Origin: an uncultured Chloroflexia bacterium
GTDB taxonomy: Bacteria; Chloroflexota; Dehalococcoidia; DSTF01; JALHUB01
NCBI GenBank assembly: GCA_963842845.1
Contig: CAWJHZ010000007.1
Coordinates: 8,342 to 72,341 of the forward strand
Direction: 5' to 3'
DNA: 64,000 bases
Shown here in pieces: positions 1-27,668 of the stretch. The notes beneath the pieces are model-generated. The model searched no databases and was not told where the DNA came from. It saw only the letters and a list, made by a program, of their open reading frames with translations. The translations under genes and the position numbers were made by a program. Each line of letters starts with the position of its first letter. Within the stretch, counting starts at the first letter, position 1.

Positions 1-174
1 AACTGCATGAGAATGTGCAACTTCGGCGCTATCGGCTACTCTGCCTACGCCAACAAGTGCACGGTAAACCAACTGCAGTGCTACGGCTGCGGCGTATGCA
101 GAGCGATTTGCCACAAGAAATCGATTGTCCTCGGGGACCGAACTGCCAGCCCGATGCTCGTCAACGAATGGTGA
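1..174 (+). CDS. 4Fe-4S ferredoxin-domain protein, C-terminal part (5' truncated by window edge)
   Basis: Frame 1 is open from position 1 and reads CNFGAIGYSAYANKC...CYGCGVCRAIC, i.e. CxxCxxCxxxC-type cluster motifs. It stops at TGA 172-174, overlapping the next start (ATGGTGA). Confidence 0.45.
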   Translation, partial: NCMRMCNFGAIGYSAYANKCTVNQLQCYGCGVCRAICHKKSIVLGDRTASPMLVNEW

Positions 175-494
175 TGCCGGTGATCGATTTGCAGGTCGAC
201 TCCCACAAGTGCGCCTCGCCCGACGAATGCCGCGTCTGCCTCGATCGCTGTCCCCAAAGCGTGTTCCAGATATATCCCGCCAATGGCCGAAGACCCGGCC
301 TCGCCACGACGGAATGGGCTATCCAACCGCTCTTCCTCAGCCTCTGCACCGCCTGCGGGATATGCCGCGACACCTGCCCTCAGCACGCCATCTCCATTGT
401 AGTCACGCAGGGCAGCGTCTCCCGGCCACCCGCCTCTAGAGGGTCGCTGCCCTCGGTGAGGCCGGCACATGGCAGGTCACCAGCTTCAGCCTAG
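168..494 (+). CDS. small dicluster 4Fe-4S ferredoxin-like protein
   Basis: ATG at 168 inside the ORF 15..494. Two Cys motifs, CRVCLDRCP and CTACGICRDTCP. The start overlaps the upstream stop, suggesting translational coupling. Confidence 0.5.
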   Translation: MVMPVIDLQVDSHKCASPDECRVCLDRCPQSVFQIYPANGRRPGLATTEWAIQPLFLSLCTACGICRDTCPQHAISIVVTQGSVSRPPASRGSLPSVRPAHGRSPASA

Positions 495-600
495 TAGACG
501 CGGCATCTGGTCACATGATTCTCAGTAACGCTGGCCTCTTGAGTCTCGCATTCGACCTTGATGTGTTCAAAGGGGCTTGCCCTGCTGAGGCACGGGTGAA

Positions 601-644
601 GGTCAATGCAGCACGCATACGACTAACGCCGAAACTGCTTGACA
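601..644. promoter_or_regulatory. 44-bp palindromic element, copy 1 (GGTCAATGCAG..N23..CTGCTTGACA), putative operator/promoter element upstream of the TSP3-dockerin gene
   Basis: The reverse complement matches copies at 7912-7955 and 11562-11605 with about 4 mismatches. Arms GTCAA(T)GCAG / CTGCTTGAC are inverted repeats. It contains a TTGACA hexamer. Confidence 0.5.
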
Positions 645-907
645 AAACCTTCTGAGAGTGCTAGAAAAACGACGACTGGTGGCCTTTCCCCGCTCAATGA
701 GCTGCGCAAATCGGCTGGCATTGATTGCCAAAGAACCAGCGAGGAGCGCTGTGCGTTTGTGTTTAGGTTCGTGTTCGGTCTGCCGATGGTTATGCGAAGG
801 ATTCTCCTCGTCACCAGTCCCCTTCGTCGGCCCGGCAGATCCCCCAGGCCGTGACCTTGTGGACGGGTCAGGCTGGTGTTGTTTTTCTCTCTGGTAGGAG
901 GAATGTG

Positions 908-3541
908 ATGATAAAGAGAGCCGTTTTCGTGACCGCCATCGGGCTGGTAGCGGTATTGGCAGCCCTCGGCCTGGGTTCGCTGAGTCGCGGCGCGACCCCG
1001 AGCCAAGCAGGCATCGGCATACCGATTCAGCCTTTCGCCCCGGACTGGTCCAACAGCGGAGAGTCCAGCGCTGCACTCGGAGACACCAACACCGGGGGGA
1101 ATGCCATAATAAACCTGGTTGCGCAGGATATCCCCCGCGGTCAGCGTATCGCCGGACCTTTGTTCTTCTCTGACCCAGCTTACCGCGTGCCTCTCGACAT
1201 GGACGGCACCGAGGGGGCGACTGTGGGCGACATCTTCGCCACACTGGACGTCATGTGTGACTCCACGGGTTCAGGCGCTGAGGACACGATGGGCAATGCG
1301 ACCCCGACCGACCCCTGGCCGTGGGTACAAAACACAACGGCAGCGCAAGGAACGATAGACTCCTTCCTCTACGCTGTGGTGCCGCCCTATCCTTGGCTTT
1401 TCCGTGACACTGTCACCGTCACGAAGTTCTGGATCGCCGGTGCCCCGGTCGGCACTAAGGTCGTGCTGAACAGCATTTGGACTTCGGTCCCCTGGTCAGC
1501 CAACGGCGCCGGCGACATCGTATCGACAAGGAACGGCGGCGACGCCCGCGTCTGGAGCGCGGCCACTGACGGTCTCTGCATCGACTCGCCGCAGAGCAGC
1601 GTATCTCACACTTCCACCAACTACGCGCCGCCTCTCTTGGGCGACACGGGCGGGGCTTGCACTGGCGGAAACTGCTCCGACGCGGCCGTCTACGGGCCAA
1701 TCGGCAAGTACACCCAGACCGGTGCTGGAACAGTCTCGGTCAAGGGCGTCTACGTGAATAGAGGACCCGACGCGGGCAACTTCACCGCCCACTGGGACAT
1801 TGAGGCGACAAACCCCAGCGTCGCCGACGCCAACTTCGTCACCGGCGGAACGAAGACCCTGGACCATGCTCAGGCCCTTCCGCTAGCCGTGTCTACCGAT
1901 GACCCGCAGAGCATCGCGATCACCTGTAGCGGCTCCGGCGAAGGGCTCCTCGTGGTCAAGGACGTCCTCTGGCCGGTTGCCCCGACTCAGGACTACTACC
2001 CGGCGGATAACGCCGACACCCTGGTAATCAAGGTCGTCTGCACGGCGGACGCGCCCACGCTCGTCGACCTGTCGGTCACGCAGCTTATCCAGAAGATGGG
2101 AGTTCCCGTGGTTTCGCCTGAGCCGTCCCAGCCCGAGCAGATCAACCTGCTGCAAGGCCAGGCGGCGACAGTTACCCTTCGTGACGTGACTACCAACAAT
2201 GCCACGAGCGTCCAGACCGCCACCGAGTGGCTCGACGCCCAGACATCCGGCGTTCTGACCTCGAGTTGGGGCTCAGCGACGTTGCCCAACGGCGGAAGCC
2301 AGACCAACGCCGGCGCTGGCACTCCCGATGCCAGTACTACAATCGCCGGCATCACCGAGCCTGTAGGCCAGAGCGACCTTACCGCACCTCTGACCGTCAC
2401 CTGCCCAGTTGCGGCGTTGGTGGGCCGCTACTCCGTCGTCGTGAAGGCTATCGTTGCCCCGAGCGCCAACGGAGAGCTGAAGCCCCAGGACAACGCCAAC
2501 CGCCTGGTTATCATGGTCAACTGCTGGACCACCATGCCGGCAGGCGACGGGTACGACGATGGCATGGGCCTGTACCCGCGCTGGACCATCGCTTTCAGCA
2601 ACCCGGACTCCCGTCAGTCGGGCAACCTCTCGTCGGGCACGCCTGAGACCTTGCTCCCGCCTAGCTTCCCGCAGGATGGCAATGGTGACACCAAATTGCA
2701 GCAGCCGATCGGCACCTACGTCGAGCGTTTCTTGCAGAACGGCTGCTACTGGGACGCGCCCGGTGGATGCCAGTTGACGCCCGGTGGCCCGACCACCGGA
2801 CCAGGGTCCTGCGACACCAACCTTGACGGCTACCTGACGCAGGCCGAGACGCAGCAGGACTACCGCCTGGTGGCTCTGGGTGGTATGGCCACCATCGACC
2901 CGAGCGGGGCCTGCCTCGAGCTGCCCCAGTACGCTCAGCCTGGACACCCGGTTGCGCTCCCGCAGACCAGCGCGGGCATGTGCCCGCAGGTACCGTGGGC
3001 AATGGCCGGCGGACCGCTCGCATCCCAGACCACGTACCCTGTGAACGCGGACCACGACTGCGACGGTATTCCGGACGGAGTCGAGGTTTCCTGGGGCTCC
3101 AACCCCTTGGTTGCCGACACGGACGGTGACGGCGCCAGCGACTACGTGGAGATGTTCGACCTCACGAACCCATTGAACCAGGACACCGACGCCGACGGCT
3201 TCCTCGACAAGCCATCCAACGTCTTTGGCGACAACACCGACAAGTCCATGGACAACTGCCCGACCGTCCCGAACGCAGACGGCCTCGGCGGCAACAGCCA
3301 GAAGAACACCGATGGCAAGCACCGCGCTGTCGGCAGCACAATCCCGGCGGGCAAGGCCAGCAACCCGAACAAGGACAAGATCGGCGACGCCTGTGACCCC
3401 GACAACGACAACGATGGGCTCCCGGACGCCGTCGAAGGTGTGATGGGCACGACATCCATAGGCACGGTAGGCGGCTGCAACCCGGCGACAGAATCCGAAC
3501 TGCCTGCCCGCCTACGACACCAACGGCAACCACTGCGTTGA
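908..3541 (+). CDS. large secreted protein with thrombospondin type-3-like Ca-binding repeats (N-terminal segment; likely continues into 3471..4124 after a frameshift)
   Basis: RBS AGGAGG then ATG at 908 (MIKRAVFVTAIGLVAVLAALGLG signal peptide). Repeats of the DTDGDGxxDxxE / DxDADG type near the C-terminal third. The frame ends at 3541 while an adjacent frame is open from 3471 and continues the same repeat style. Confidence 0.6.
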   Translation: MIKRAVFVTAIGLVAVLAALGLGSLSRGATPSQAGIGIPIQPFAPDWSNSGESSAALGDTNTGGNAIINLVAQDIPRGQRIAGPLFFSDPAYRVPLDMDGTEGATVGDIFATLDVMCDSTGSGAEDTMGNATPTDPWPWVQNTTAAQGTIDSFLYAVVPPYPWLFRDTVTVTKFWIAGAPVGTKVVLNSIWTSVPWSANGAGDIVSTRNGGDARVWSAATDGLCIDSPQSSVSHTSTNYAPPLLGDTGGACTGGNCSDAAVYGPIGKYTQTGAGTVSVKGVYVNRGPDAGNFTAHWDIEATNPSVADANFVTGGTKTLDHAQALPLAVSTDDPQSIAITCSGSGEGLLVVKDVLWPVAPTQDYYPADNADTLVIKVVCTADAPTLVDLSVTQLIQKMGVPVVSPEPSQPEQINLLQGQAATVTLRDVTTNNATSVQTATEWLDAQTSGVLTSSWGSATLPNGGSQTNAGAGTPDASTTIAGITEPVGQSDLTAPLTVTCPVAALVGRYSVVVKAIVAPSANGELKPQDNANRLVIMVNCWTTMPAGDGYDDGMGLYPRWTIAFSNPDSRQSGNLSSGTPETLLPPSFPQDGNGDTKLQQPIGTYVERFLQNGCYWDAPGGCQLTPGGPTTGPGSCDTNLDGYLTQAETQQDYRLVALGGMATIDPSGACLELPQYAQPGHPVALPQTSAGMCPQVPWAMAGGPLASQTTYPVNADHDCDGIPDGVEVSWGSNPLVADTDGDGASDYVEMFDLTNPLNQDTDADGFLDKPSNVFGDNTDKSMDNCPTVPNADGLGGNSQKNTDGKHRAVGSTIPAGKASNPNKDKIGDACDPDNDNDGLPDAVEGVMGTTSIGTVGGCNPATESELPARLRHQRQPLR

Positions 3542-3554
3542 TGGGTCCGAAGTC

Positions 3555-4124
3555 TTGCTCGGTGGCAACCCGCTGGGCACGGCCAAGTGCCCCGGTTCGC
3601 TTACCCTGGCCCAGGAGAAGTTCTTCCGTGCCTGTCACTGGAACCTCCCGGCCCTGGGCGCCTATGGTGGCCTATGGGACGCCAAGTACAGCACCAACAC
3701 CGACCGTACGGAGCTTGACCCTGACGACGACGGCGTCGCTTGCCAGACCCCTACCGGCGCTGTTGGAGACAAGGACAACGACAGCGGGCCGAGCGCCCTG
3801 CCCGACGTCCCGGACATCACTGAGATCGAGGGCTACAACACCAACCCGGCCAACAAGGACACGGACGGTGACGGGTGCGAAGACTACGTCCAGATCAACG
3901 ACGTGAACGGAAGCGGCGCTGTCGACACGACTGACCTGCTGATCGTTGCCAAGCGTCTCGGCGGAGCGACTCCGGCGAACAAGATGTCCGACGAGATAAT
4001 CGACGTCAACAAGGACGACACGATCAGCTCGAGCGACCTGCTTCAGGTTGCCAAGAACACCTGCACTGCCAAGGGTAATGCGGGTGGCTGTGGTGCGGCG
4101 GTCTGCAAGAACGCCGTCTACTAG
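3555..4124 (+). CDS. C-terminal segment of the same secreted protein: TSP3-like repeats plus a dockerin-like duplicated Ca-binding segment
   Basis: This frame is open from 3471 (NPNCLPAYDTNGNHCVDG...) without an ATG, so it is probably a continuation. Dockerin-like pair DVNGSGAVDTTDLLIVAKRLGG ... DVNKDDTISSSDLLQVAKN. Ends 4124. Confidence 0.55.
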   Translation: MLGGNPLGTAKCPGSLTLAQEKFFRACHWNLPALGAYGGLWDAKYSTNTDRTELDPDDDGVACQTPTGAVGDKDNDSGPSALPDVPDITEIEGYNTNPANKDTDGDGCEDYVQINDVNGSGAVDTTDLLIVAKRLGGATPANKMSDEIIDVNKDDTISSSDLLQVAKNTCTAKGNAGGCGAAVCKNAVY

Positions 4125-4184
4125 TTTACGGAAAGGCCGTTTCTGAAACGGAGCGGTGGAGCAACGGAATAGACGAGAATCAGT

Positions 4185-4223
4185 ACCGTCCGGGCCAACC
4201 CCCGAAAGGACGGCCCGGACGGT
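4185..4223 (+). terminator. GC-rich hairpin (12-bp stem ACCGTCCGGGCC / GGCCCGGACGGT) followed by a U-rich tract; likely rho-independent terminator
   Basis: Perfect inverted repeat read directly from the sequence, about 60 bp after the stop at 4124, followed by ATGTTGGTGTT. Confidence 0.5.
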
Positions 4224-4931
4224 ATGTTGGTGTTCAGCGCGGTTGTATTGAGTAGGATGAGTAGAAGCCTTCAGAGCGCTAACGGCTGAGCGACGGGCTC
4301 ACGACATCATCATGAGACGCTCTTATGTACAAGGGCCAGGCAATATCCCTCACCAGCGGTAATAGTACTGGTCTCACACCTGCCAGAGCCGCCAGATAGC
4401 TCGAATCAGGATTCGCTTGAGTGCACGTGGCCAGGACACAGTCGGGTCGGCCCAGTCCGCCTGCGCCTGTCCGCCGCGTGGCGTCCCAAAGCGGACGGTG
4501 GCTACCCCTCCCCAAGCATCGGTCGATAAGGGCTTGAGGAGGCCCCTGCCGAGTGCGCAGGCCTCCTCCGAACCCCCGGGGGCTGGACCTCTCCGAACAG
4601 GCGACATCAGCTCTTGACGCTCTCCCGCGGCCAGCTCAGAAGGAAGGCGCGATACGTCCGCACGACGAGGGGGATGGTCACGCCAGCTTCGGGCTTGGGC
4701 CCACGCTGCTGGAGCTGGCGTGAGCGATCTCACTGCTGCTCAAGCCTTGCCTCAATAGGTCCAAGATCTCCATCCTTCCGTCTGACAATCGGCCCTGATC
4801 GCATTGTCTGCGGGAGGGGCCCTCCGCCCAAACGGAAACTCCTGAGATAGCGCGATCCTGGGAATCTTTACATGGCGTGTGACAGTTAGCTCAAGGCGAC
4901 AGAGGTAAGCCCGCTTGAACCCCAGAGTCGG

Positions 4932-6482
4932 CTAGTAGCAGCCTATTTCTTCTTCCGTTACGTCAAGCTGCGCACCTGGAGTTCGCTCGAAGCAGAGCCC
5001 TAGCTGCTGGATGAACTGGTACGGCTCGAGGACGTCCGCAGGCACGTCCTTGACGCTAACGAGCACCCCCTGCCGACGAAGGGCTTCCTGCAGCTTCGCC
5101 ACGTCGAGCTTCTTCGGGCTTACGTTGTTTTGCGCCGCGAGCGCAGCCGCGGTGCCCGCGGCTTGCCCCGTGCAGATGCTGGGTGTGCAGTACCTCAGTC
5201 CGGCCATGGCGAAGGCGCCGCTCGACATCGTCGTTCCGGCCGCCATCAGATTGTCGATCCCCCTCGACAGCAGAGCGCGGTAGGGGACGTCGTGTGGTAC
5301 GATTTCGTACCTGAACCTGCCGGTCGCCTCATAGATGTCCGGCGGCATGTTGTTGATGGCAACGGAGTCCTCGAAGACCTTCCCCTCGCGCATCTCGCTC
5401 ACCGTCATCACGTGCTCACCGACGATCCTGTGACCTATCAGGGTGGGCGACTGCGGCAGCTTCTCGATATAGGAGTTCTCGAAACCAGGCACCTTCTCCT
5501 TGAGGAGTTGGTGCATCGCGAGGGTCTGCTTCCGGAGGTCTATCTCGCAGTCGGTCATCTCCTCCGCCATCCAGCCCGTGCGACCCAGCGGTACGGCGTG
5601 AACTGGATTCATGCAGTACACCTTGCCGGTGCCGTAGAAGTCCCATTCGGGCGAAAGGATGACGGAGCCGCTCTTGATGTCAGACCCCTTGGCCTGCGCT
5701 TCGCCGATAATCTTCCGCCCGCCGTACATTCCACCCCACTCGACCGGGTTCGCCTTCCGGAACTCGCGGAACTTTGCCAGGTCCACACCGTTCATGTAGA
5801 AGGCGTCGAGCATGCCGCCCGGATGTCCTTTGCGAGGCCCGACGGGGAAACCTTCGTCACCGAGGACGGGGGCGCCCGATCTCCACGCAATATCGCCCGT
5901 GCCCGTTACGTCGATGACCACTTTCCCCAGTATGGCTTGCCTGCCTTCCTTCGTCTCGACGATCACACCCTTGAGGGAATCGCCTTCCCGAATCGCGCCA
6001 GCCGCCAGCGTGTGGTAGAGCAGGTTAACTCCCGCTTCCGCCATCATCTGGTCGAGCATGCACTTGTAGTATTCGCCGTCGAAGGTGCGTCCCCAGCGTC
6101 CCCAATAGCCGACGCTCGTCTCTAGCAGGCGCTTCGGCAGCTGGTCAGGACTCTTGCCGTTCATGAAGGGCATCCTGCGGATGGCCTGTTCGGCGGTCGG
6201 TACATTCTCCTCGCTTCGCGAAGCGCCGGCCTTCACGAGACGGTCCAGGATCTCCATGACGATCCCGCCGTGCAAGCCGGGATCAACGAATGCGAAGATG
6301 GAGTTGTTGCCCTGCGTCTGAAGCCCGCCCAGGTTGCCAAATCGGTCTATTAGAATGGTCTGAGCTCCAGTTCGTGCCGAAGCTAATGCTGCTCCAATGC
6401 CCGCCGGCCCCCCGCCGACAACGATCACTTCGGTCTCGGCTAGTACGGGAACCTCTCTCTGCGGTTCTACGATTGTCTTCAA
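4932..6482 (-). CDS. FAD-dependent oxidoreductase
   Basis: N-terminal dinucleotide-binding motif VIVVGGGPAGIGAALASARTGAQTILIDRFGNLGG. 516 aa ORF. Confidence 0.7.
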   Translation of the reverse strand: MKTIVEPQREVPVLAETEVIVVGGGPAGIGAALASARTGAQTILIDRFGNLGGLQTQGNNSIFAFVDPGLHGGIVMEILDRLVKAGASRSEENVPTAEQAIRRMPFMNGKSPDQLPKRLLETSVGYWGRWGRTFDGEYYKCMLDQMMAEAGVNLLYHTLAAGAIREGDSLKGVIVETKEGRQAILGKVVIDVTGTGDIAWRSGAPVLGDEGFPVGPRKGHPGGMLDAFYMNGVDLAKFREFRKANPVEWGGMYGGRKIIGEAQAKGSDIKSGSVILSPEWDFYGTGKVYCMNPVHAVPLGRTGWMAEEMTDCEIDLRKQTLAMHQLLKEKVPGFENSYIEKLPQSPTLIGHRIVGEHVMTVSEMREGKVFEDSVAINNMPPDIYEATGRFRYEIVPHDVPYRALLSRGIDNLMAAGTTMSSGAFAMAGLRYCTPSICTGQAAGTAAALAAQNNVSPKKLDVAKLQEALRRQGVLVSVKDVPADVLEPYQFIQQLGLCFERTPGAQLDVTEEEIGCY

Positions 6483-6500
6483 GGTCCTTCTCCCGTTCGT

Positions 6501-7859
6501 CTATTGCGTCTCACCGGGCAGAGGAGCACCGGGTTGACCTTTTGCCTCTGCGGGGGGCGTCGGAACCGTACAGTTCTTGGTCGACTCAAAGCCGATCGGG
6601 TCGCCGAAGATCTGCCACCGGAAGACAGGCGACGCGCCGGTGCGGTCGACGGTTGCCTTCACGAAAACCTCTGACTCGAGAAAGCGGTGGTCGGTCGGAC
6701 TGGTGCTCGCCGGCAGGAGCGATAGGTCCGTGCCAAAATTACAGACGGACTCGGCCGCCGCAATCAAAGACTGACGGGTGAGATTCTTGCCTGCCTGCTT
6801 GAGGAGGCCCACCATACTTTCTCCCAGCTCGTAGCCCACGAGCGTGCTGTTGTCGAACGGTAGGTCCGGCGCGACCTGGGCCATGATGGCCTTCCGGCTG
6901 GCGACGCCGGGGATGTTCGTCTCCCACGCCTGGTGACCGACAGTGGTGCTAATCACGCCCTCGATATTGTCGAAGCCGGCAAGTTGCGCGGTAATGTCCA
7001 GGGCATTGGCTTCGTTGACCAGCATGGGGACGTTCCAGCTCAGAGTCTGCCGGACCGTCTTCATCATGTTCGCGGCCTGGACCGGGGAGCCCCAGAACAT
7101 GATTACTTCGACGCCGTCGGACTTCAGGCGCTCGACCTGAGCGGTGACGTCCGGCTGCGACACGTCATACCACTCAGTGGTGACATCCATGTTGGCTCCG
7201 AGGTCTTTGAGTCCTTGTCTTGTGCCCTGCTCGCCCTCTTTTCCGAAGTCGTCGTTCTGGGCGAGGATGCCCAGCTTCTTCCCATCGTAGTTCTGGTATA
7301 GATACGTCGCGAAGATGTGGCCTTCTGTCCCGTAGTCGACCATGGTCGTGAAGCGGTTCTTGCCCACCGGGTTGGTCAATTCGCTGGAGCCGCTCAGCGC
7401 GAACATGTCAGGGACACCCTTGTCTTCCAAGTACTTGTAGACAGCGTCTTCGGGCTCGGTACCGAGATTGCCGATGAGGGCAAAGACGCCGTCCTGCTCC
7501 ACCAGCGTCCGGACCACTTCAATGGCGACAGGTCCGGAGTATTGGCTATCACCGACGACAAGATTAATCTTCCGACCGTACATGCCGCCCTGCGTGTTTA
7601 TGTAGTCGAAGTACGCCTGCATGCCTTTGCTGATTTCGATTCCCCAGGCAGCCGTTGGGCTACCGCTCAGGGGCATGAGGGTTCCTAGCGTAATCGCCGT
7701 ATCGGTGACTCCCGTCGTGTCGCCACCGCCTCCCGTGGCGTTGCCGGAGTTGCTCGCATCATCATTGCTCGACCCACAAGAGCCCATGAAGATAGCGAAC
7801 ACCATGAGTGCCGCGGTCAAAAGGACGAGTATGCGCCTGAGTTGTTGTGCTTTCATCAC
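6501..7859 (-). CDS. ABC transporter substrate-binding lipoprotein (branched-chain amino acid / LivK-like periplasmic binding fold)
   Basis: Signal peptide plus lipobox (LMVFAIFMGSCGSS), Gly/Thr-rich linker, and a type-I periplasmic binding protein-like sequence. 452 aa. Confidence 0.6.
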   Translation of the reverse strand: MMKAQQLRRILVLLTAALMVFAIFMGSCGSSNDDASNSGNATGGGGDTTGVTDTAITLGTLMPLSGSPTAAWGIEISKGMQAYFDYINTQGGMYGRKINLVVGDSQYSGPVAIEVVRTLVEQDGVFALIGNLGTEPEDAVYKYLEDKGVPDMFALSGSSELTNPVGKNRFTTMVDYGTEGHIFATYLYQNYDGKKLGILAQNDDFGKEGEQGTRQGLKDLGANMDVTTEWYDVSQPDVTAQVERLKSDGVEVIMFWGSPVQAANMMKTVRQTLSWNVPMLVNEANALDITAQLAGFDNIEGVISTTVGHQAWETNIPGVASRKAIMAQVAPDLPFDNSTLVGYELGESMVGLLKQAGKNLTRQSLIAAAESVCNFGTDLSLLPASTSPTDHRFLESEVFVKATVDRTGASPVFRWQIFGDPIGFESTKNCTVPTPPAEAKGQPGAPLPGETQ

Positions 7860-7911
7860 TACCTCTCGTGGCTCCGGGATCGGAGTCCAGTGTGAATCTG
7901 GCGTCCGCGCC

Positions 7912-7955
7912 TGTCAAGCAGTTTCGGAGTTAGGCGTATGCGTACTGCATTGACC
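7912..7955. promoter_or_regulatory. 44-bp palindromic element, copy 2, 53 bp upstream of the ABC binding-protein gene
   Basis: TGTCAAGCAGTTTCGGAGTTAGGCGTATGCGTACTGCATTGACC. Inverted arms GTCAAGCAG / CTGCATTGAC. Confidence 0.5.
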
Positions 7956-8030
7956 TCTGCAGATCGTAGGGCCACGCTGCCGCGAGGACCTGGTCCTTCA
8001 GGCGGCAGGGTAGCATGCCATCGCATCGGT

Positions 8031-8987
8031 TCAATTTGATGGGTTGCTGCGCGTAAGGCCGGACCAGCGCACGATGTCCAAGCCCTCGTCGCGAGCGGCC
8101 TCGGCCAGTTTCTCCATCTCGCCCTCAGACATCAGATGATCTTGCGCGAGAGCGTAGGGACGGTCGAGGCGATGATACTTGGCGGAGCACGTGTTGTTGA
8201 AAGCGAGAAGGTCATATCGGTCAACCGTGGGCAGGTTGTCGCGGATAAAGGCAGCGACCCGGCGCACGGTTGCTTCGTCGGCAGTATAGCCGGGTATGAT
8301 CGGGGTTCGTATCCACATCGGCTTGCCAGACCGGGACACGCGCCGCGCGTTCTCCAGCACGATGTCCAGCGGCACGCCTGTGTGCGCCCGATGGCGCTCC
8401 TCGTCGAGCACCTTCAGGTCGAACAGAACAAGGTCCGCGAGATCGACGAGCGGCTGAAGACGTCGCCAGCTCGTGCCACCACAGGTGTCTAGCGCCAGGT
8501 GCACCCCCGCCTGCCGCACGACGCTCATTAGACTGTGGCAGAACTCTGTCTGCATCGATGGCTCGCCGCCGGAGAGGGTTACACCGCCGCCAGACGTCTC
8601 GAAGAACACGCGATCGCGCAGGACGATTTCGGCCACGTCCTCGACGCTTCTGCGCTTGCCCAGCACTTCGAGGGCGGCCGACGGGCATGCCTCAACGCAA
8701 TCGCCACAGGCATCGCACAGACCCCTGTCAATAGTCATCCCCTCTCTGGTCAGTGTAAGGGCGTGCGAGGGGCACGCATCGAGGCATTTCCTTGCACCGA
8801 CGCAGTGTGGCCCATACCACACAAGTTGGGGCCGTGTCCCAATTCCCTCGGGGTTATGACACCAGGGACAGCGCATGGGGCAGCCTTTGAGGAAGACCGT
8901 CGTGCGAACGCCGGGGCCATCCTCAGTGGAGTGGCGTTGAATATTGAAGATGTCACCGGTAGGGCCGGCACTCTCGCGGAGCATCAA
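8031..8987 (-). CDS. glycyl-radical enzyme activating enzyme (radical SAM, with extra ferredoxin-like 4Fe-4S clusters)
   Basis: CPMRCPWCHNPE radical-SAM cluster motif near the N-terminus. Additional motifs CxxCxxCxxxCP (CLDACPSHAL, CDACGDCVEACP). Immediately downstream of the GRE gene. Confidence 0.8.
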   Translation of the reverse strand: MMLRESAGPTGDIFNIQRHSTEDGPGVRTTVFLKGCPMRCPWCHNPEGIGTRPQLVWYGPHCVGARKCLDACPSHALTLTREGMTIDRGLCDACGDCVEACPSAALEVLGKRRSVEDVAEIVLRDRVFFETSGGGVTLSGGEPSMQTEFCHSLMSVVRQAGVHLALDTCGGTSWRRLQPLVDLADLVLFDLKVLDEERHRAHTGVPLDIVLENARRVSRSGKPMWIRTPIIPGYTADEATVRRVAAFIRDNLPTVDRYDLLAFNNTCSAKYHRLDRPYALAQDHLMSEGEMEKLAEAARDEGLDIVRWSGLTRSNPSN

Positions 8988-9016
8988 ATCAAAGCCTGCG
9001 CCTGAGTCTCGAGATC

Positions 9017-11431
9017 CTAAGAAACGCCGAACTCCGTTCTTTCGATGATGTCGTTCTGAAGGGACCTCGATAGATCGATGAACCGGTATGAATAGCCGCT
9101 GACTTTGACCATCAAATCAGGGTAGTCTCCCGGATTCTTCTGTGCATCCTTGAGCGTCTCCCTGCCCATCGGGTTGAACTGGACTTGTCTGCCGCCCAGT
9201 TTGAAGTAAGCCTCGAGCAGCGAGGCGAGTTTGTCCGCTCCCTCATCCGTCCTGATGGTGAGCGGATTAAGGGTCATGTTGACAGCGGTCCCAGAAGACA
9301 AGGAAGCGGACGACGCGGTCGCGGTTGAGTGGAGCGCAGCCGTCATCCCATTGAGTTCGGTCCCGTTTGCGGGAGACATACCGTTCGAAACAGGTCGTCC
9401 CTGCAACCTACCGTCCGGCGTGGCCCCCAGCACGCGACCCTCGGAAACCTGTGACCCGAGGGCAGAGATCAAGAGGGCCCGGTAGGGGCCGCCATCTATC
9501 ACGCGCCTGTGCTTTCGAGCTTCCTTGTCCAGCGTGTCAGTCACCCAAGCAGCGATTTCGTCCGCCTCTGGGTCGTCGTTGCCGTATTTGGGCGCTTTGC
9601 GAAGCAGTTGCTGCTTCAGCTCCTCGGCACTCTCGAAATTGTTGCGCAGGTGCTTGACGAGCTCTTCCATCGTGACGAGCTTCTTCTCGAACACAGCCCA
9701 ACGAATTGCGGCGAGCGAGTTGACGACTGTTCCCAGCCCCTGACAGGAAACCGAGGCATGATTGTACCGAGCCCCACCCCGGGTGATATCGCGACCTGAC
9801 TCTACGCATCCTTCGATGGTCGATGACAGGAGCGGGGTCGGGAAGGATTCGGCGAAGACCCGGTCCTTAGCGTCCGTCAGCTTGACCATGACGTCTATCG
9901 AATTGGCCAGTTGATCGGCGAAGGCCTTCTTCACGTCTGCGAACGTCTTGAGAGCGGCGGCCGGTGGAGTCCTCACGCCTATGCGTTCCCACTTGCTGGT
10001 GAGTGCGCAACCCTCGTTCAGCGCCATTTCCAGAGCAAGCACGAAGTGAGCGATGCTGCCCGATGTGTAGCCGTTGTTGTTCCCCGTCGACGTCAACTCG
10101 ACGCATCCGACAATGGCGTAGTCCCGCGCATCTTCCAGCGCGTAGCCGTCCTTCATCAGGTCCCTTATCACCACAGCGTCATTGTAGAAAGCTACGCCGG
10201 CGGTGTTTCTGTAGGTTTCGCAGGCCTTCACGAGAAAGTCACGAGGCGATTTCTCAGAGATCCTCACCGCCAAGCCGTTCCGAAGGCCTTTCAGCCGGTT
10301 GTAGGACTCAAGCATGAGATAGGATATCTCGTTCGTCGCGTCCTCACCGCTTCGGCCCAACCCACCGATTGTGATGTTGTTGGGGCCGAAGACGGTAAAG
10401 GTGGACACTTTGATAAAGTACTCATCGAGCGCCTCGAGAGCCTCCTCGCGCGTCAGCCTCCCGGCCTCTGTGTCCCTCTTGTAGTACGGGCAAAGATATT
10501 GGTCGACACGCCCCGGCGCAAAAATGGCGTCTTCACCGTAGCTTATCGCGGTGACGACCTGGGTCATCCAGACGGCCTGCACGGCATCCATGAAGGTAGT
10601 CGGCGGCTCCGCCGGCACGCGCCGGCAGCGATCAGCGATTTCGAGCAGCTCTGCTTTCCTTCGACCATCTGCCTCCTGAGCCATTTCTTCCGCGAGACGA
10701 GCGTAGCGCTCAGAGTGGTCGCAGACAGCCATAGCTGCCACCTGCACGGATTCGAGGAAGTCCTTACGCTGATCGTACTGTGCATCTCCCTCTTTGAGCC
10801 TGGCAAGTTGTTGCGCCGCTTGCCTCGCTATGCCGTTGAACCCCATATCGAGGACCTTCTTGACTCCTACCGTGACATGACCCTGCATATCCGCCACAAA
10901 GGCAACCCGCGGGGACGGACTGCTCTCGGAGACCAAGCCCTCTCTCTTCCACCGGTCAAGCATCAAGCTGTGCGCGTCCTTGCCTATCCAGTAGGGGAGG
11001 ATCTCCTCGGTCAATTCCTTGAGCATCTCATCAGGCATATTGAGGAGTTCCCTGATCCATTCCGGACCGACGGCCTCGATATCGTCCACAAAGCGGATAT
11101 CATCTGTGGTCTTCCCATGAAAGGGTATCCCGATGAATATGGCCCGGCTCAGGGATGACCTTTCGATGCCAATGGGAGCGGCAACCGTCTTGAAGGATTT
11201 TGCTCCAACCAGAAGGTCATCGTCGTCAATCTTGATGGACATGTGGCGCAGGGTCTCTTCCAGCCCCTTGGCCGCACGCATGCACGGAGGAACACCTTCT
11301 GTCCGCTTGTATGCCCTTGTATAATACTTGGCGCGTTCGATATCTGCCTCAAAGGGACTCGACAGCAGATTCTCTCGCAGCCTGCCCACCCTCTCTGAGT
11401 AGGCAGCTTCGCTCTTCGTAGTCGCGATCAT
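9017..11431 (-). CDS. glycyl radical enzyme (PFL-family, eliminase/dehydratase-type active site)
   Basis: 804 aa. C-terminal glycine radical motif RVSGYSYRF. Active-site loop IVGCVEL typical of GRE eliminases (glycerol dehydratase/CutC/HypD-like) rather than PFL. Confidence 0.8.
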   Translation of the reverse strand: MIATTKSEAAYSERVGRLRENLLSSPFEADIERAKYYTRAYKRTEGVPPCMRAAKGLEETLRHMSIKIDDDDLLVGAKSFKTVAAPIGIERSSLSRAIFIGIPFHGKTTDDIRFVDDIEAVGPEWIRELLNMPDEMLKELTEEILPYWIGKDAHSLMLDRWKREGLVSESSPSPRVAFVADMQGHVTVGVKKVLDMGFNGIARQAAQQLARLKEGDAQYDQRKDFLESVQVAAMAVCDHSERYARLAEEMAQEADGRRKAELLEIADRCRRVPAEPPTTFMDAVQAVWMTQVVTAISYGEDAIFAPGRVDQYLCPYYKRDTEAGRLTREEALEALDEYFIKVSTFTVFGPNNITIGGLGRSGEDATNEISYLMLESYNRLKGLRNGLAVRISEKSPRDFLVKACETYRNTAGVAFYNDAVVIRDLMKDGYALEDARDYAIVGCVELTSTGNNNGYTSGSIAHFVLALEMALNEGCALTSKWERIGVRTPPAAALKTFADVKKAFADQLANSIDVMVKLTDAKDRVFAESFPTPLLSSTIEGCVESGRDITRGGARYNHASVSCQGLGTVVNSLAAIRWAVFEKKLVTMEELVKHLRNNFESAEELKQQLLRKAPKYGNDDPEADEIAAWVTDTLDKEARKHRRVIDGGPYRALLISALGSQVSEGRVLGATPDGRLQGRPVSNGMSPANGTELNGMTAALHSTATASSASLSSGTAVNMTLNPLTIRTDEGADKLASLLEAYFKLGGRQVQFNPMGRETLKDAQKNPGDYPDLMVKVSGYSYRFIDLSRSLQNDIIERTEFGVS

Positions 11432-11561
11432 CGCAGTCTCCTTCAGCGCGCAAACAAAAGCCTCGCGCCGGCCAATCCCTCAAAACAACGGCGCACTTAA
11501 TCCCGGAATTGCAGTCGACGCACGGGCGCCGACCATTCAGTTTGAATCTGACATCGGCGCC

Positions 11562-11605
11562 TGTCAAGCAGTTTCGGAGTTAGGCGTGTGCGCCGCGTAC
11601 TTGCC
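11562..11605. promoter_or_regulatory. palindromic element, copy 3 (right arm partly degenerate), in the divergent GRE / MarR intergenic region
   Basis: TGTCAAGCAGTTTCGGAGTTAGGCGTGTGCG... is identical to copy 2 over about 30 nt. The preceding TGAATCTG context is also shared with copy 2. Confidence 0.45.
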
Positions 11606-11721
11606 TTCGCAGGCCGTTTAGAGGAACATGCCAACGCTTCGGACAACGTGTCACACCCTCAGCCTTATACGGTACCAGCCTGAAGTGTGATATCCTCTCT
11701 AGCATCAAGCCACGCGGGTGT

Positions 11722-12159
11722 GTGGAAGCTATGCCTATCGAAGAGTGGTGGAGCCTGTACGCGGCCTACGCCTGGATGCATAAGGAATGCGACCGCGCGT
11801 TGTCGCCCCGGGACCTCACGGTCTCGCAAGCTGCAGTGGTCGGGTTTCTAGGCATGGCCGGACGGCCGCTGAGGGTGACGACGCTGGCCCGGCTGCTGAT
11901 CCAGGAGAGTCAGAGCGCAACCAGTCTCGTTGACCGCATGTGCGCCGGCGGGCTCGTGGAGCGAGTAAAAGACCCCGACGATCGGCGTGTGGTCCGGGTC
12001 CGGCTAACTGATAAGGGCGAGCAATTGTACGATATCCTCCAGACGACGGCGCCCCAATTCAACGACGAGATGTTCAGCGTCCTGTCGTTCGAAGAGCGGG
12101 AGACCCTTAAAGACCTGCTTCAGAAGTTCACCCGACGCAACGTGCAGCGCTTTCGTTGA
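11722..12159 (+). CDS. MarR family transcriptional regulator
   Basis: 145 aa. Winged-helix region ...SQAAVVGFLGMAGRPLRVTTLARLLIQESQSATSLVDRMCAGGLVERVKDPDDRRVVRVRLTDKG. Divergent from the GRE operon. Confidence 0.75.
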   Translation: MEAMPIEEWWSLYAAYAWMHKECDRALSPRDLTVSQAAVVGFLGMAGRPLRVTTLARLLIQESQSATSLVDRMCAGGLVERVKDPDDRRVVRVRLTDKGEQLYDILQTTAPQFNDEMFSVLSFEERETLKDLLQKFTRRNVQRFR

Positions 12160-12207
12160 TGCCCATGTGATTTGTCTGAGCTAACCGTCGATAGGGGAAC
12201 AACGGCG

Positions 12208-12295
12208 CTGGCCTGCCCCCGAAAACGAGTCCACGCTCTATGTTACTCGTACAGGCACCATCTGGTATGACGGAGCCATGATTCCTGCCCACGGC
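12208..12295. mobile_element. solo remnant (about 90 bp) of an IS3-family terminal inverted repeat end
   Basis: CTGGCCTGCCCCCGAAAACGAGTCCACGCTCTATGTTACTCGTACAGG... is about 85% identical to the right end of the complete IS at 23145-23235. No transposase follows. Confidence 0.55.
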
Positions 12296-12403
12296 ATTAC
12301 TGCCCCCAAGCGCGCGTGGCCTGCACTCCAAGGCGTGGTGGGGACGCAAAACATGTGTGGTTGGTGTCGGCGATTCGGACTTCGACGAGCGTTGGACCGG
12401 GCG

Positions 12404-12434
12404 TTGACGGCGCTGCCTATTCTTTGCGTATAAT
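12404..12434 (+). promoter_or_regulatory. putative promoter of MmeI-like gene 1: TTGACG ... TATAAT with the -10 box only 7 bp from the ATG (leaderless or near-leaderless mRNA)
   Basis: TATAAT at 12429-12434, ATG at 12442. TTGACG about 19 bp upstream. The same TATAAT-7bp-ATG arrangement occurs upstream of the paralog at 33515. Confidence 0.35.
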
Positions 12435-12441
12435 CCGTCCG

Positions 12442-15228
12442 ATGAACCCCAACGAATTCGTACGCAAATGGGCTGCCTCCACCCAGAGCGAAAGTGCGGC
12501 TGCACAAGCGCATTTCATCAACCTGTGTCAGATGCTGGGCGAGGGAACGCCCAACGAAGACCCCAGCGGCGATTACTTCGCCTTCGAGAAAGGCGCGAAA
12601 AAGCCCGACGGCGACGGGTTTGCCGACGTGTGGCTCAGGAACCACTTTGCCTGGGAGTACAAGGGCAAACACAAAGACCTCGGGATTGCTTACAAGCAGG
12701 TTCAGACGTATCGCGAGGCGCTGGGTAACCCGCCGCTGCTCGTTGTCTGCGACATAGAACGATTCGAAGTCCACACCAACTGGACCAACACAGAGACCTG
12801 GATCTACCGCTTCCGCAACGCCGACATCGCGCTGGACGAGCCGGTCGAAGTCACCACTTACGGCGGGCCCGCTGCCGACGCCCCGAAGCTCACAGCCCTC
12901 CAAGTCCTGAAGGCGCTCTTCGAGGAGCCCGAGCGCCTGAAGCCTCTCCGGACTACCGAGCAGATCACACAGGAGGCCGCCAAGCTCTTCGGCCGCATCA
13001 CCGATGACCTGCGCAAATGGAAGGTAGAGGACATGCGCATCGCTCGCTTCGTGACGCGGGTCATGTTCTGCATGTTCGCGACAGACGTGGGCCTGTTGCC
13101 GCGCGAGACCTTTAGCGAGGTCATCAACGTCAACAAGGACGACCCCGCCGCATTCCGCGAGAACCTGTCGGCGCTCTTCGGCGTCATGGCGGAAGGCGGC
13201 AAGTTCCTCATGCACCCCGTCCCTTACTTTAACGGCCGCTTGTTCGAGGACAGCGACGTGCCCGACGAGATCCACGGCGAGCACGTGCGGCTTTTGGAAG
13301 ACCTGAACGACCTCAACTGGGCGGACGTGGAACCGGTCATCTTCGGCACGCTGTTCGAGCGCGTCATCGACCCCGCCCACCGCAAGCAACTGGGCGCGCA
13401 TTACACCTCTCGAGCCGACATCGAGCTGATCGTTGAGCCGGTGCTGATGGCGCCCCTGAGGCGGGAGTGGGACCAGATCAAGGCAGCGGCGGAGGACCTG
13501 CCGGAGAACGCGGCTTCGCGGCGGCGCATCGCCGGCGCGCTGCAGACGTTCCAGAACCGGCTGGCAACTATCCGTGTTCTTGACCCCGCCTGCGGCTCCG
13601 GCAATTTCCTCTACGTCTCCCTGGCTCTTCTCAAGGCCCTCGAAAAAGAGGTTATCGCCTTCGGGTCGTTGCATGACGTTGCGCTCTCCCCGCGCGTTCA
13701 CCCGCGCCAACTGATGGGCCTGGAGATCAGCGAGTACGCGCGGGAGCTGGCATCCATAGTCATATGGATAGGCTACCTGCAGTGGAAGCATAGAAACGTC
13801 ATCCCGTTTGCCGATGAGGTGCCCATTCTGCAGCCACTGGACCAAATCGAACTTCGCGATGCGATATTGGACCTTTCTAGCCCGTCGGGTCCCAGGGAAC
13901 CGGATTGGCCTGAGGTCGATATCATTATTGGGAATCCTCCGTTCCTTGGCACCAAGAAAATGCGGGAGGCTCTTGGCGATGATCTCACCCGCGCACTGAG
14001 ATCGGTCTACGCCGGACGCGTCCCCGGCTTTGCTGATTTGTGCTGCTACTGGTTTGAGAAGGCGCGGCGGGCCATCCAGGAGGGCAAGGCGAAGAGGGCC
14101 GGGCTCTTGGCCACGCAAGCGATTAGAGGCGGCCTCAACCGTGAAATCCTGAAGTCGATCAAGCGCACGGGCGATATCTTCTTTGCAGAATCCGATAGGC
14201 CGTGGATACTCGATGGCGCTGCTGTTCATGTTTCAATGATCGGGTTCGATGATGGGAGTGAACGGTGCCGATTTCTGGATGGCCGGCCCGTCGACAACAT
14301 CAATCCTGACCTCACGAGCCAGTCTAACGTGACGGCCGCAAGGCGACTCGCCGAGAACGCGGGCATTGGGTTCATCGGCGACGTGAAGGTAGGTTCGTTC
14401 GACATTGAACAGTCGCTGGCCGTTTCCTTCTTGGCGCTGAGCGGCAACCCCAACGGCAAGCCGAACGGTGATGTGATTCGGCCTTGGGTGAATGGCGCAG
14501 ATTTCACGGGGCGTTGTCGCTCCAGGTGGATCATCGACTTTCCTCCGGGTATGTCAGCCGAAGAGGCTGCCAAGTACGAGAAGCCATTTGAGTACGTAAG
14601 GGCTCACGTCAAGCCCCTGCGGGATACAAGCAAACGTAAGCCCTACCGAGAAAAGTGGTGGATCCATGCGGAAGCATGCGTGGCGATGCGAGACGCTATC
14701 AAGGGCCTCTTGGTTAGTCCGACCCTTACAAAGCATCGTCTCTTCGTATGGTGCGAGCCCCCAGCACTGCCAGATCATCAACTGGTCGTGTTCGCGCGGG
14801 ACGACGACTATTTCTTCGGCGTTCTCCACTCCCGCGCTCATGAGGTGTGGGCACGCGCCACAGGCACCCAGTTGCGAGAAGTGGAGAGCGGTTTCCGTTA
14901 TACCCCGACAACCTGTTTCGAGACGTTCCCGTTCCCAAGACAATCGCCAGAGCAGCCGGGCGCAATCGCAGAGGCGGCGCGGGAACTCGATGGTCTGCGG
15001 CAGACCTGGCTTGACCCGCCGGAAGACAGCATCGCTCCGAGTGAACTCAAGAAGCGCACTCTAACCAACCTCTACAACCAGCGCCCCACCTGGCTGGCAA
15101 ACGCGCATCGCAAGCTGGACGAGGCGGTGTTCGCGGCATACGGCTGGCTGGAGTCGCCGGACGCGCTGTCGGACGCGGACATCGTCAAGCGGCTGTTGGA
15201 GTTGAACCTCGCGAGAGAGCCCGCCTAG
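12442..15228 (+). CDS. MmeI-family Type IIL (IIG) restriction-modification enzyme: fused PD-(D/E)xK nuclease, N6-adenine methyltransferase and target-recognition domains; intact
   Basis: The N-terminus aligns with the MmeI pattern (FVRKWAAS...PDGDGFADVWLRNHFAWEYKGK...QVQTYREALGNPPLLVVCDIERFEV) with the D...EYK nuclease motif. SAM motif VLDPACGSGNFL. Motif IV GNPPF. The long C-terminal region is the TRD. Single ORF of 928 aa from the second Met. Confidence 0.8.
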   Translation: MNPNEFVRKWAASTQSESAAAQAHFINLCQMLGEGTPNEDPSGDYFAFEKGAKKPDGDGFADVWLRNHFAWEYKGKHKDLGIAYKQVQTYREALGNPPLLVVCDIERFEVHTNWTNTETWIYRFRNADIALDEPVEVTTYGGPAADAPKLTALQVLKALFEEPERLKPLRTTEQITQEAAKLFGRITDDLRKWKVEDMRIARFVTRVMFCMFATDVGLLPRETFSEVINVNKDDPAAFRENLSALFGVMAEGGKFLMHPVPYFNGRLFEDSDVPDEIHGEHVRLLEDLNDLNWADVEPVIFGTLFERVIDPAHRKQLGAHYTSRADIELIVEPVLMAPLRREWDQIKAAAEDLPENAASRRRIAGALQTFQNRLATIRVLDPACGSGNFLYVSLALLKALEKEVIAFGSLHDVALSPRVHPRQLMGLEISEYARELASIVIWIGYLQWKHRNVIPFADEVPILQPLDQIELRDAILDLSSPSGPREPDWPEVDIIIGNPPFLGTKKMREALGDDLTRALRSVYAGRVPGFADLCCYWFEKARRAIQEGKAKRAGLLATQAIRGGLNREILKSIKRTGDIFFAESDRPWILDGAAVHVSMIGFDDGSERCRFLDGRPVDNINPDLTSQSNVTAARRLAENAGIGFIGDVKVGSFDIEQSLAVSFLALSGNPNGKPNGDVIRPWVNGADFTGRCRSRWIIDFPPGMSAEEAAKYEKPFEYVRAHVKPLRDTSKRKPYREKWWIHAEACVAMRDAIKGLLVSPTLTKHRLFVWCEPPALPDHQLVVFARDDDYFFGVLHSRAHEVWARATGTQLREVESGFRYTPTTCFETFPFPRQSPEQPGAIAEAARELDGLRQTWLDPPEDSIAPSELKKRTLTNLYNQRPTWLANAHRKLDEAVFAAYGWLESPDALSDADIVKRLLELNLAREPA

Positions 15229-16806: not shown

Positions 16807-16832
<26 letters not shown>
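15225..16832 (-). CDS. 2-hydroxyacyl-CoA dehydratase-related protein (HgdB/BcrC-like partner of CoA-enzyme activase)
   Basis: About 535 aa from a GTG at 16832 (VSTIESAAEIEAKVEAF...). Cys-containing segments CNRGQCNPTYY and DCGPCRMGMY. Located immediately downstream of the activase fusion gene. Assignment by family resemblance only. Confidence 0.4.
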
Positions 16833-20289
<3,457 letters not shown>

Positions 20290-27494: not shown

Positions 27495-27668
27495 CAACCC
27501 ACGGCTAGACCGCTACAGCAGTGTGTGAAACTGTCCACGTGAGAACGCCTACAGGACAGGGTGAATTAGGCGCATTGACAAGGGTTCAAACGGTGCTATA
27601 ATCTCCGCATTGGTGGCTCGTTACTGATTATCCCCCGTCATGGATTCCCGCCCGATAAGGAGAGTTGA

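Follow-up and report, generated by a model that had tools for sequence, protein, structure and literature searches.

The window analysed here is a stretch of 64,000 nucleotides from an uncultured Chloroflexia bacterium (GenBank assembly GCA_963842845.1, contig CAWJHZ010000007.1), and the locus in question, at positions 4932-11431, is filled exactly by four co-directional open reading frames (ORFs) on the reverse strand. They encode a glycyl radical enzyme (GRE), its radical S-adenosylmethionine (SAM) activase, a LivK-like solute-binding protein and a FAD-dependent oxidoreductase, hereafter the flavoprotein (Table 1). The activase gene starts 29 nt past the GRE stop codon; after a gap of 171 nt comes the binding-protein gene, which is followed 18 nt later by the flavoprotein gene. 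A 290-nt promoter region separates the GRE gene from the divergent gene of a MarR-family regulator, and one flank of the locus holds an MmeI-type restriction-modification gene, the other a TSP3-repeat gene and a dockerin ORF. An earlier note on this DNA had described an eliminase-type GRE with a dedicated activase, lying outside the characterised GRE clades, and a co-located FAD oxidoreductase and amino-acid-type binding protein.

Table 1. Genes and promoter/operator copies at and around the GRE locus (positions refer to the 64,000-nucleotide window)
Feature	Position	Strand	Description
Glycyl radical enzyme (GRE)	9017-11431	-	804 aa; PF02901 535.6 bits, PF01228 85.2 bits
Radical-SAM GRE activase	8031-8987	-	318 aa; TIGR02494 330 bits (cut-off 174), Radical_SAM, Fer4_12, Fer4_7
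LivK-like lipoprotein solute-binding protein (putative)	6501-7859	-	452 aa; Peripla_BP_6 (PF13458) 176 bits
FAD-dependent oxidoreductase (flavoprotein)	4932-6482	-	516 aa; PF12831 (FAD_oxidored) 245 bits
MarR-family regulator	11722-12159	+	145 aa; divergent from GRE; MarR_2 46 bits
Putative promoter/operator block, upstream of GRE-activase operon	11538-11617	-	core 11559-11587
Putative promoter/operator block, upstream of binding-protein/flavoprotein operon	7888-7967	-	core 7909-7937
Putative promoter/operator block, third copy, upstream of TSP3-repeat gene	600-647	+	core 624-644, TAACGCCGAAACTGCTTGACA
Secreted TSP3-repeat protein	908-3541	+	TSP3_bac match; signal peptide and repeat modules in translation
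Dockerin ORF	3555-4124		after TSP3-repeat gene; Dockerin_1 match

The GRE has the features that define its superfamily: a barrel like that of pyruvate formate-lyase (PFL) and a glycyl-radical domain (PF02901 and PF01228), a radical glycine (G779), an active-site cysteine (C443), and a cognate activase gene alongside. The Cys loop reads VGCVELTS and includes G442-C443-V444-E445, which bears out the GCVE-type loop of the earlier note; the Cys-x-Glu (CXE) motif C443-V444-E445 was invariant in all 95 aligned members of the clade described below. The glycine loop, which had been given as RVSGY, carries Lys instead of Arg: residues 775-784, encoded at about 9080-9110, read VKVSGYSYRF, with V-K-V-S-G-Y-S at 775-781, a variant of the RVxG[FWY] pattern. 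This Lys was present in 92 of the 95 clade members, and Arg occupies the position in glycerol dehydratase (GD), propanediol dehydratase (PD), HypD, Archaeoglobus PFL2, PflD and YbiW, as well as in an unrelated GRE from locus L039 (such labels denote the genome and metagenome loci compared); the CutC fragment used in this comparison ends short of the loop. A second Arg, four residues past the radical glycine, was nearly invariant (93/95), giving the clade the signature V-K-V-[ST]-G-Y-S-x-R-F. The activase, which scores above the TIGR02494 cut-off, contains CxxxCxxC at C36-C40-C43 and two ferredoxin-like (auxiliary 4Fe-4S) cluster motifs. Together, the two genes encode a real, intact, oxygen-sensitive radical enzyme and its activating partner.

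Comparison with curated NCBIfam models left the GRE below every family cut-off, with about half of the required score for the eliminase equivalogs HypD, HpsG and CutC. The values (bits scored/cut-off) were 521/1100 for HypD (NF043068), 490/1000 and 458/1000 for HpsG and HpfG (NF048011 and NF048009), 418/1050 for CutC (TIGR04394), 408/1109 for the PflD type, 353/1100 and 302/1150 for the decarboxylases IAD and HPAD, and 133/994 for PFL (TIGR01255); the broad subfamily model TIGR01774 was also missed (555/678). In a phmmer search of PDB sequences the highest scores belonged to GD (1r8w, 423 bits), HypD (6vxc, 418), CutC (407), PD (390) and Archaeoglobus PFL2 (384). The C-S lyases HpsG, IseG and IslA, in which an Arg/Gln/Arg triad holds the sulfonate, scored 361, 348 and 327 bits, and the other GRE types were AAD (265), BSS (228), MASS (221), HPAD (190) and PFL (128), the last through E. 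coli structures that align with only the C-terminal 200 residues of the GRE. A June 2026 review lists GD, PD, HpfG, HypD, HpyG, HpzG, CutC, IseG/IslA, HpsG, HplG, YbiW and PflD as the characterised eliminases and isomerases (PMC13450708). All of these but HpfG, which was compared through its NCBIfam model, have PDB entries and score 327-423 bits against the GRE.

For alignment and tree building, the sequences of GD, HypD, PD, PFL2 and part of CutC were rebuilt from printed alignments, E. coli PflD and YbiW were added, and these seven references were aligned jointly with 95 clade members. The GRE is 31.5-34.7% identical to the references (GD, PD, HypD, CutC, PflD, YbiW and Archaeoglobus PFL2) and 50-85% identical to clade members, and in a neighbour-joining tree the 95-member clade was monophyletic on a stem of 0.33, with all references outside. 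The AlphaFold2 model of the GRE (predicted local distance difference test score, pLDDT, 90.6) was compared with known structures by Foldseek, and the top 44 hits (template-modelling score, TM, 0.85-0.91; 28-32% identity) were all eliminases or isomerases (GD, HypD, PD, CutC, HpzG, HplG, PflD, IslA, IseG, HpsG, YbiW and HpyG) or the uncharacterised homologues 2f3o and 6xs4. BSS, HPAD and MASS ranked behind these 44, which included no X-succinate synthase or decarboxylase. The Cys-Cys pair of PFL is missing, and the nearest sequences and folds are eliminases and isomerases, in agreement with the eliminase-type, non-PFL assignment of the earlier note. With half cut-off scores, identities of 31.5-34.7% and a clade of its own, the GRE also did not cluster with CutC or any other characterised family, and its placement outside them stands.

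The active site, mapped through the joint alignment, combines conserved catalytic positions with a changed pocket. H185 (equivalent to GD H164 and HypD H160), C443 (GD C433) and E445 (GD E435) were present in all clade sequences aligned, and the His has an equivalent in six of the seven references (GD, PD, HypD, PflD, YbiW and PFL2), CutC having an Asp (D216). The HypD residue list was taken from published work in which HypD S334 is aligned with GD F333 and CutC F389 (PMC7077986); in our alignment the substrate-contact positions of GD, HypD and CutC, including this trio, line up consistently. Specificity residues of all three enzymes are absent from the GRE. Relative to GD, S282 is replaced by I303, D447 by S457, Y339 by P350 and Y640 by I655, F333 is deleted, and only H164 is kept. 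Relative to HypD, D278 is replaced by A302, D339 by G349, F340 by P350, Y450 by I460 and T645 by A657, S334 is deleted, and only H160 is kept. Of the CutC residues, among which D216, T502 and Y506 touch the trimethylammonium group, D216 corresponds to H185 and Y506 to I460, with T502/S503 matched by T456/S457.

Several aromatic pocket residues are thus replaced by Gly, Ala, Ser, Pro, Val or Ile, or deleted, and the replacement of bulky aromatics by small residues suggests a larger cavity in the GRE. In addition, an acidic residue, E300, is inserted in the clade, followed by D301 in the bacterial subclade and by Gly in most Asgard members. Because small residues or deletions stand in place of aromatics and an acidic residue has been added, the pocket points to a larger substrate, possibly an amine-bearing one. 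Positions 302, 446, 457, 460, 653 and 657 vary across the clade, including among some tandem paralogues, as would be expected if clade members had diverged in substrate. Neither the pocket nor the gene neighbourhoods named a single substrate class, and the earlier statement that the substrate cannot be read from the sequence was borne out.

Two of the better characterised enzymes illustrate both the likeness and the distance. The trans-4-hydroxy-L-proline dehydratase HypD (6VXC), grouped here with the hydroxyproline-isomer enzymes HpyG, HpzG and HplG, is the second-best sequence match; its H160 and E436 are kept, the GRE has an acidic residue in the strand that bears HypD D278, and the Hyp enzymes, like the GRE clade, form sets of paralogues, suggesting related substrates. 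HypD differs, however, in D278, D339, S334, Y450 and T645, all lost from the GRE, as well as in the family score given above, and no Δ1-pyrroline-5-carboxylate (P5C) reductase or proline reductase context is present around the GRE. Choline trimethylamine-lyase, CutC (5FAU, 5A0U), shares the fold (TM 0.90), the CXE motif, the Thr/Ser pair and an acidic residue near the leaving-group side; it differs in D216 (His in the GRE), Y506 (Ile), F395 (Pro) and F389 (deleted), in falling well short of its model's cut-off, and in the lack of microcompartment genes at the GRE locus.

The clade to which the GRE belongs is broad. Hundreds of database proteins are more than 55% identical to the GRE, under names that go no further than 'formate C-acetyltransferase' or 'PFL/glycerol dehydratase family', and a scan of species-representative genomes yielded 74 clade loci. 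The bacterial members come from Dehalococcoidia and other Chloroflexota (best match 79%), Thermodesulfobacteriota (Smithella, Syntrophaceae, Desulfobacteraceae), Acidobacteriota, Acidimicrobiales (Actinomycetota) and Syntrophomonadaceae (Bacillota). Archaeal members include many from Asgard lineages at 50-54% identity (Promethearchaeota and Thor-, Hod-, Hel-, Odin-, Frey- and Jord-archaeal metagenome-assembled genomes, MAGs), together with one Nitrososphaerales MAG and one Nezhaarchaeota MAG. As judged from the alignment and tree, the clade is a large, separate and widely distributed GRE branch, distinguished by its glycine-loop signature and by a remodelled pocket. Bacteria of soil and sediment carry it, as do most Asgard lineages; among PFL-like GREs it seems to be the principal one in Asgard archaea, and it is common in Dehalococcoidia and syntrophic Thermodesulfobacteriota.

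Gene neighbourhoods were analysed at 75 clade loci. The activase adjoins the GRE in 53 of them, tandem arrays of two to four GRE copies occur in about 25, a MerR-TetR fusion regulator in 21 and a 369-aa Fe-S protein in 14. Neighbouring transporters vary (Opp/Dpp systems at 10-12 loci, Liv permeases at seven, TRAP or MFS transporters as single cases), and other recurrent neighbours are type-B carboxylesterases (seven loci), acyl-CoA ligases (seven), acyl-CoA dehydrogenases (six) and HpaB-family proteins (four). None of the clade-typical companions (the MerR-TetR regulator, the 369-aa Fe-S protein, esterases or CoA ligases) was found in the 64-kb window. Arrays of up to four GRE paralogues on one activase were seen in L043, L080, L017, L010 and other loci, from Asgard archaea, Deltaproteobacteria and a Chloroflexia MAG. 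The complete Freyarchaeia chromosome CP147778.1 (L037) carries a clade member at 54% identity; the paper on that genome names a 'pflD', possibly this gene, among the expressed genes and treats it as a formate-producing PFL. A GRE from a paper on limonene was considered as a relative and set aside, being a true X-succinate synthase unrelated to the clade.

The two operons of the locus share a promoter element. Upstream of the GRE gene and of the binding-protein gene there is an 80-nt block (79% identity between the two copies; Table 1), and within it 29 nt, GCCTGTCAAGCAGTTTCGGAGTTAGGCGT, are the same in both; the copies stand just upstream of the first gene of their operon, in the same orientation relative to the genes, and no exact 29-mer match arose in 100 shuffles (0/100). 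The element contains a TTGACA -35 box. Of the 'shared palindromic operator' in the earlier note, the shared part is upheld; the palindrome is not, as an inverted-repeat scan (arms within 40 nt) found none at the element and direct reading matched its ends at five of eight positions. Supported by the identical 29-mer upstream of both, the GRE-activase and binding-protein/flavoprotein operons are probably co-regulated. A scan for consensus promoters and terminators gave sites no commoner than in shuffled sequence, and an Rfam scan of positions 1-13000 gave no credible riboswitch that would name a ligand.

Related elements precede orthologous GRE, binding-protein or activase genes in L001 and L008 (three copies), and a weaker copy occurs in L007, in which no MarR gene was detected. 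Elements with at most four mismatches to the 21-nt core were confined to the MarR-bearing loci L001 and L008, whose MarR proteins, encoded beside the closest GRE relatives, are 77% and 68% identical to the one here; none was found within that limit in L083 or L084, both of which are without MarR and GRE. Of the two intergenic matches in L083, the one that abuts the TSP3 promoter (-35 box) lacks the TAAC-to-CTGC part; a diverged version of the element stands upstream of the binding-protein gene. The regulator contains a winged-helix MarR domain and the conserved element overlaps the -35 box. We infer that the element serves as promoter and MarR operator, and that MarR would bind there and repress. 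The third copy lies upstream of the TSP3-repeat gene, which encodes a secreted protein of 896 aa that combines Ig-like repeat modules with C-terminal TSP3 calcium-binding repeats; this surface protein may have come under the control of MarR.

The binding protein has a signal peptide and the lipobox MGSC and is therefore probably a lipoprotein. It has the Peripla_BP_6 fold; its best PDB match is 4n03 (76 bits), on which a literature search gave no paper, and it scores 48 bits with the LivJ/LivK model NF011933, the cut-off of which is 477. In a family alignment it is 21% identical to LivJ, keeping the ammonium-binding E226 and losing the carboxylate-binding Y202, so that the LivK-like fold assigned earlier is confirmed, the amino-acid type is weakly supported, and the ligand may carry an amine. 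Permease genes of the Liv (LivH/LivM) or Opp type are absent from the whole 64-kb window; an unrelated ABC-2 permease/ATPase pair lies at 45.6-47.4 kb, 38 kb away. The pairing of a GRE with a binding protein recurs in L001, L005 and L008.

The flavoprotein, which the earlier note had correctly recognised as a co-located FAD oxidoreductase, had no PDB relatives beyond the FAD/dinucleotide-binding motif. Its AlphaFold2 model (pLDDT 88.7) gave generic flavoprotein matches (TM 0.39-0.55), the best fold match being the geranylgeranyl-reductase-like 3oz2 (TM 0.39-0.49); a functional assignment from the fold search was rejected, the similarity being that of two-domain flavoproteins in general, and a literature search on PF12831 returned nothing useful. 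In taxonomic range the flavoprotein family matches the GRE clade. Two Dehalococcoidia and two Asgard loci (L026, L029, L045 and L050) have orthologues, 56-63% identical, next to clade GREs; in L029 and L050 the orthologue directly abuts the activase gene, and an activase-flavoprotein pair is found on a short metagenome contig (L096). In Syntrophomonadaceae (L033 and L034), DhaR-like sigma-54 regulators stand divergent beside the GRE operon, and regulators of this type, 63% identical over their full length of 646 aa, occur beside a lone flavoprotein gene in bioreactor contigs (L102, L104, L105 and L120), which hints that the GRE and the flavoprotein answer to the same signal. In the genome studied here, the presence of one promoter/operator type before both operons argues for a shared pathway.

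On this evidence we favour, with moderate confidence, a MarR-controlled catabolic locus in which the GRE would use radical chemistry for the 1,2-elimination or isomerisation of a new hydroxylated substrate. The three-cluster radical-SAM activase would place the radical on G779, from which it would move during turnover to C443 to form a thiyl radical. E445 of the CXE motif would bind or deprotonate a hydroxyl group of the substrate, and H185, like its counterparts His164 of GD and His160 of HypD, would help to protonate the leaving group on the neighbouring carbon. Heterolytic cleavage of a C-O or C-N bond would then give a carbonyl product radical, which would take hydrogen back from C443. Because the two operons share the promoter/operator element next to the MarR gene, uptake by the Liv-type lipoprotein and a flavin-dependent redox step probably belong to the same pathway as the GRE. 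As the pocket lacks the residues that anchor them, the predicted substrate is none of glycerol, propanediol, the hydroxyprolines, choline, isethionate or 2,3-dihydroxypropane-1-sulfonate (DHPS), or anhydro-sugar phosphates. More tentatively, the clade may catalyse a reaction of a kind not yet described, for example the radical cleavage of a C-O bond (ether or alcohol) or a C-N bond in a larger hydroxylated compound derived from an amine or lipid, with a novel PF12831 flavoenzyme as its partner in some lineages; we regard this as a serious possibility rather than a firm expectation, and the published PFL and Ass/Bss roles would in that case be wrong.

A number of observations weigh against the eliminase pathway as proposed. 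Clade members are known from sequence alone, and the pocket map is a sequence alignment at about 33% identity, not a set of coordinates. The CXE motif, which is kept by all characterised eliminases and isomerases (PMC13450708), is by itself no proof of elimination chemistry, because arylacetate decarboxylases carry it too (C503/E505 in HPAD, E502 in IAD). Clade neighbourhoods are heterogeneous and contain no single pathway or substrate class. The link to the flavoprotein is also loose: among 21 metagenome loci of at least 6 kb with a flavoprotein homologue at 54% identity or more, just two had a GRE, none of three genome contexts placed a GRE beside the flavoprotein, and an obligate GRE-flavoprotein pair was rejected on the metagenome count. 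In L083, positions 2846-9551 are syntenic with 638-7865 of the window at 73-88% nucleotide identity and carry the TSP3 gene, the binding protein and the flavoprotein, without GRE, activase or MarR.

In L083 the TSP3 gene also flanks the binding-protein/flavoprotein pair on the other side, and these differences from the window suggest that a rearrangement or insertion took place at the repeated promoter element. The metagenome context analysis centred on the flavoprotein found no partner conserved across lineages. The binding protein and the flavoprotein form a module that also stands by itself, and its link to the GRE is recurrent and, across the clade, facultative. The earlier suggestion that the neighbours and the operator indicate catabolism of an imported molecule is accordingly retained in part: the shared element and the recurrent links favour it, but the links are facultative and the module exists without the GRE.

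Aromatic acids are common ligands of MarR regulators and Peripla_BP_6 binding proteins, and the shared Cys-x-Glu motif makes it conceivable, if unlikely, that the GRE is a decarboxylase of an aryl- or alkyl-acetate, which the Liv-type binding protein would take up and MarR would detect. Genes for CoA ligases and HpaB-family proteins do recur near clade members and the flavoprotein module. Against this, the decarboxylase comparisons given above (353 and 302 bits with the IAD and HPAD hidden Markov models, 190 and 265 bits with HPAD and AAD in the PDB) compare poorly with the 390-423 bits of eliminases, and HPAD stands behind the 44 Foldseek hits, at 22-23% identity. H185, moreover, is common to six of the seven aligned references, and no HpdC-like small subunit is present.

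We consider it still less probable that the GRE, despite its divergence, works as a B12-independent dehydratase of glycerol or 1,2-propanediol, even though GD is its best match in sequence and fold (423 bits, TM 0.89-0.91). With GD from Clostridium butyricum (1R8W) and PD (5I2A, 9RCO) it shares the fold (TM 0.88-0.91), the CXE Cys loop, the His corresponding to H164 (H185, C443 and E445 matching GD H164, C433 and E435) and an adjoining activase with auxiliary clusters; radical 1,2-elimination would be expected for both, and DhaR-like regulators stand beside clade members in the Syntrophomonadaceae loci. It is, however, only 34% identical to GD and PD and misses TIGR01774; the residues that hold the diol or triol hydroxyls in GD (S282, D447, Y339, Y640 and F333) are replaced or deleted; and its glycine loop has Lys, not Arg. 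Neither 1,3-propanediol dehydrogenase, aldehyde dehydrogenase nor microcompartment shell genes were found at the locus, and the annotated ORFs of the window include no shell-protein gene.

Activation of hydrocarbons by an alkyl- or benzyl-succinate synthase is very unlikely. Such a role has been proposed for similar Asgard GREs in Hermodarchaeota, called Ass/Bss at 29-33% identity to AssA/BssA and 33-38% to Archaeoglobus PflD (PMC8163825), and clade members do occur in Smithella and Syntrophaceae MAGs, some beside acyl-CoA ligases or dehydrogenases. BSS and MASS nevertheless score only about half as high as the eliminases (228 and 221 bits) and rank lower by fold. Characterised X-succinate synthases carry small beta and gamma subunits, MASS also a delta subunit (PMC13450708), and no small-subunit ORF fits here, because only 29 nt separate the GRE from the activase and the only gene on the other side, across the promoter region, is that of MarR. 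The Archaeoglobus fulgidus PFL2/PflD protein (2F3O) and the Asgard 'Ass/Bss-like' or 'pflD' GREs resemble the GRE in being PFL-like, with a single Cys and the CXE motif, and their function is debated in the literature; PFL2 itself is 33% identical and lies outside the clade, which has its own glycine-loop signature.

A pyruvate or 2-ketobutyrate formate-lyase, as in the JGI names of clade members ('formate C-acetyltransferase', pflD) and in Asgard metabolic reconstructions that treat pflD as the formate-producing step (PMC11291895 and a bioRxiv preprint), is excluded for practical purposes because the Cys-Cys pair is missing (G442-C443), in line with the TIGR01255 score and the restriction of the E. 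coli PFL match to the C-terminal 200 residues.

The reading of the locus as encoding a radical eliminase or isomerase bears on a wider problem. No class of anaerobic radical enzymes is growing faster than the GRE eliminases, and unannotated GRE clades, archaeal ones especially, have been named as the open problem (PMC13450708). The clade is now labelled PFL or read as hydrocarbon-activating in environmental and Asgard reconstructions, and its usual database labels are probably wrong. The present locus is a clean and complete example, with enzyme, activase, a regulator with a recognisable putative operator, and a candidate binding protein that could serve as bait for the ligand; the putative operator and the paralogues' pocket signatures offer further handles. 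The clade's substrate, once found, would correct Asgard and environmental models and probably add a new radical reaction.

The window has two restriction-modification genes of the MmeI type, at 12316-15228 (+) and 30692-33569 (-); the second seems to be divided, with 663 aa in one part and the target-recognition domain in another of 305 aa. An rve-type transposase (23174-24025), a tyrosine integrase (37926-38858) and a large serine recombinase (42156-43751) lie within 20 kb of one another, and the region adjoining the GRE locus has the look of a mobile or variable genomic island. At 16807-20289 (-) is a gene for a 1160-aa protein with two BcrAD_BadFG ATPase domains and DUF2229, a fused activase of the 2-hydroxyacyl-CoA dehydratase/benzoyl-CoA reductase type, the partner dehydratase of which was not identified. 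Finally, positions 26415-37671 hold a series of genes for beta-propeller repeat proteins (PD40, Kelch, RCC1 and SBBP types), of which several are probably secreted; the closest GRE locus from Dehalococcoidia (L004) is likewise flanked by proteins with RCC1 repeats.

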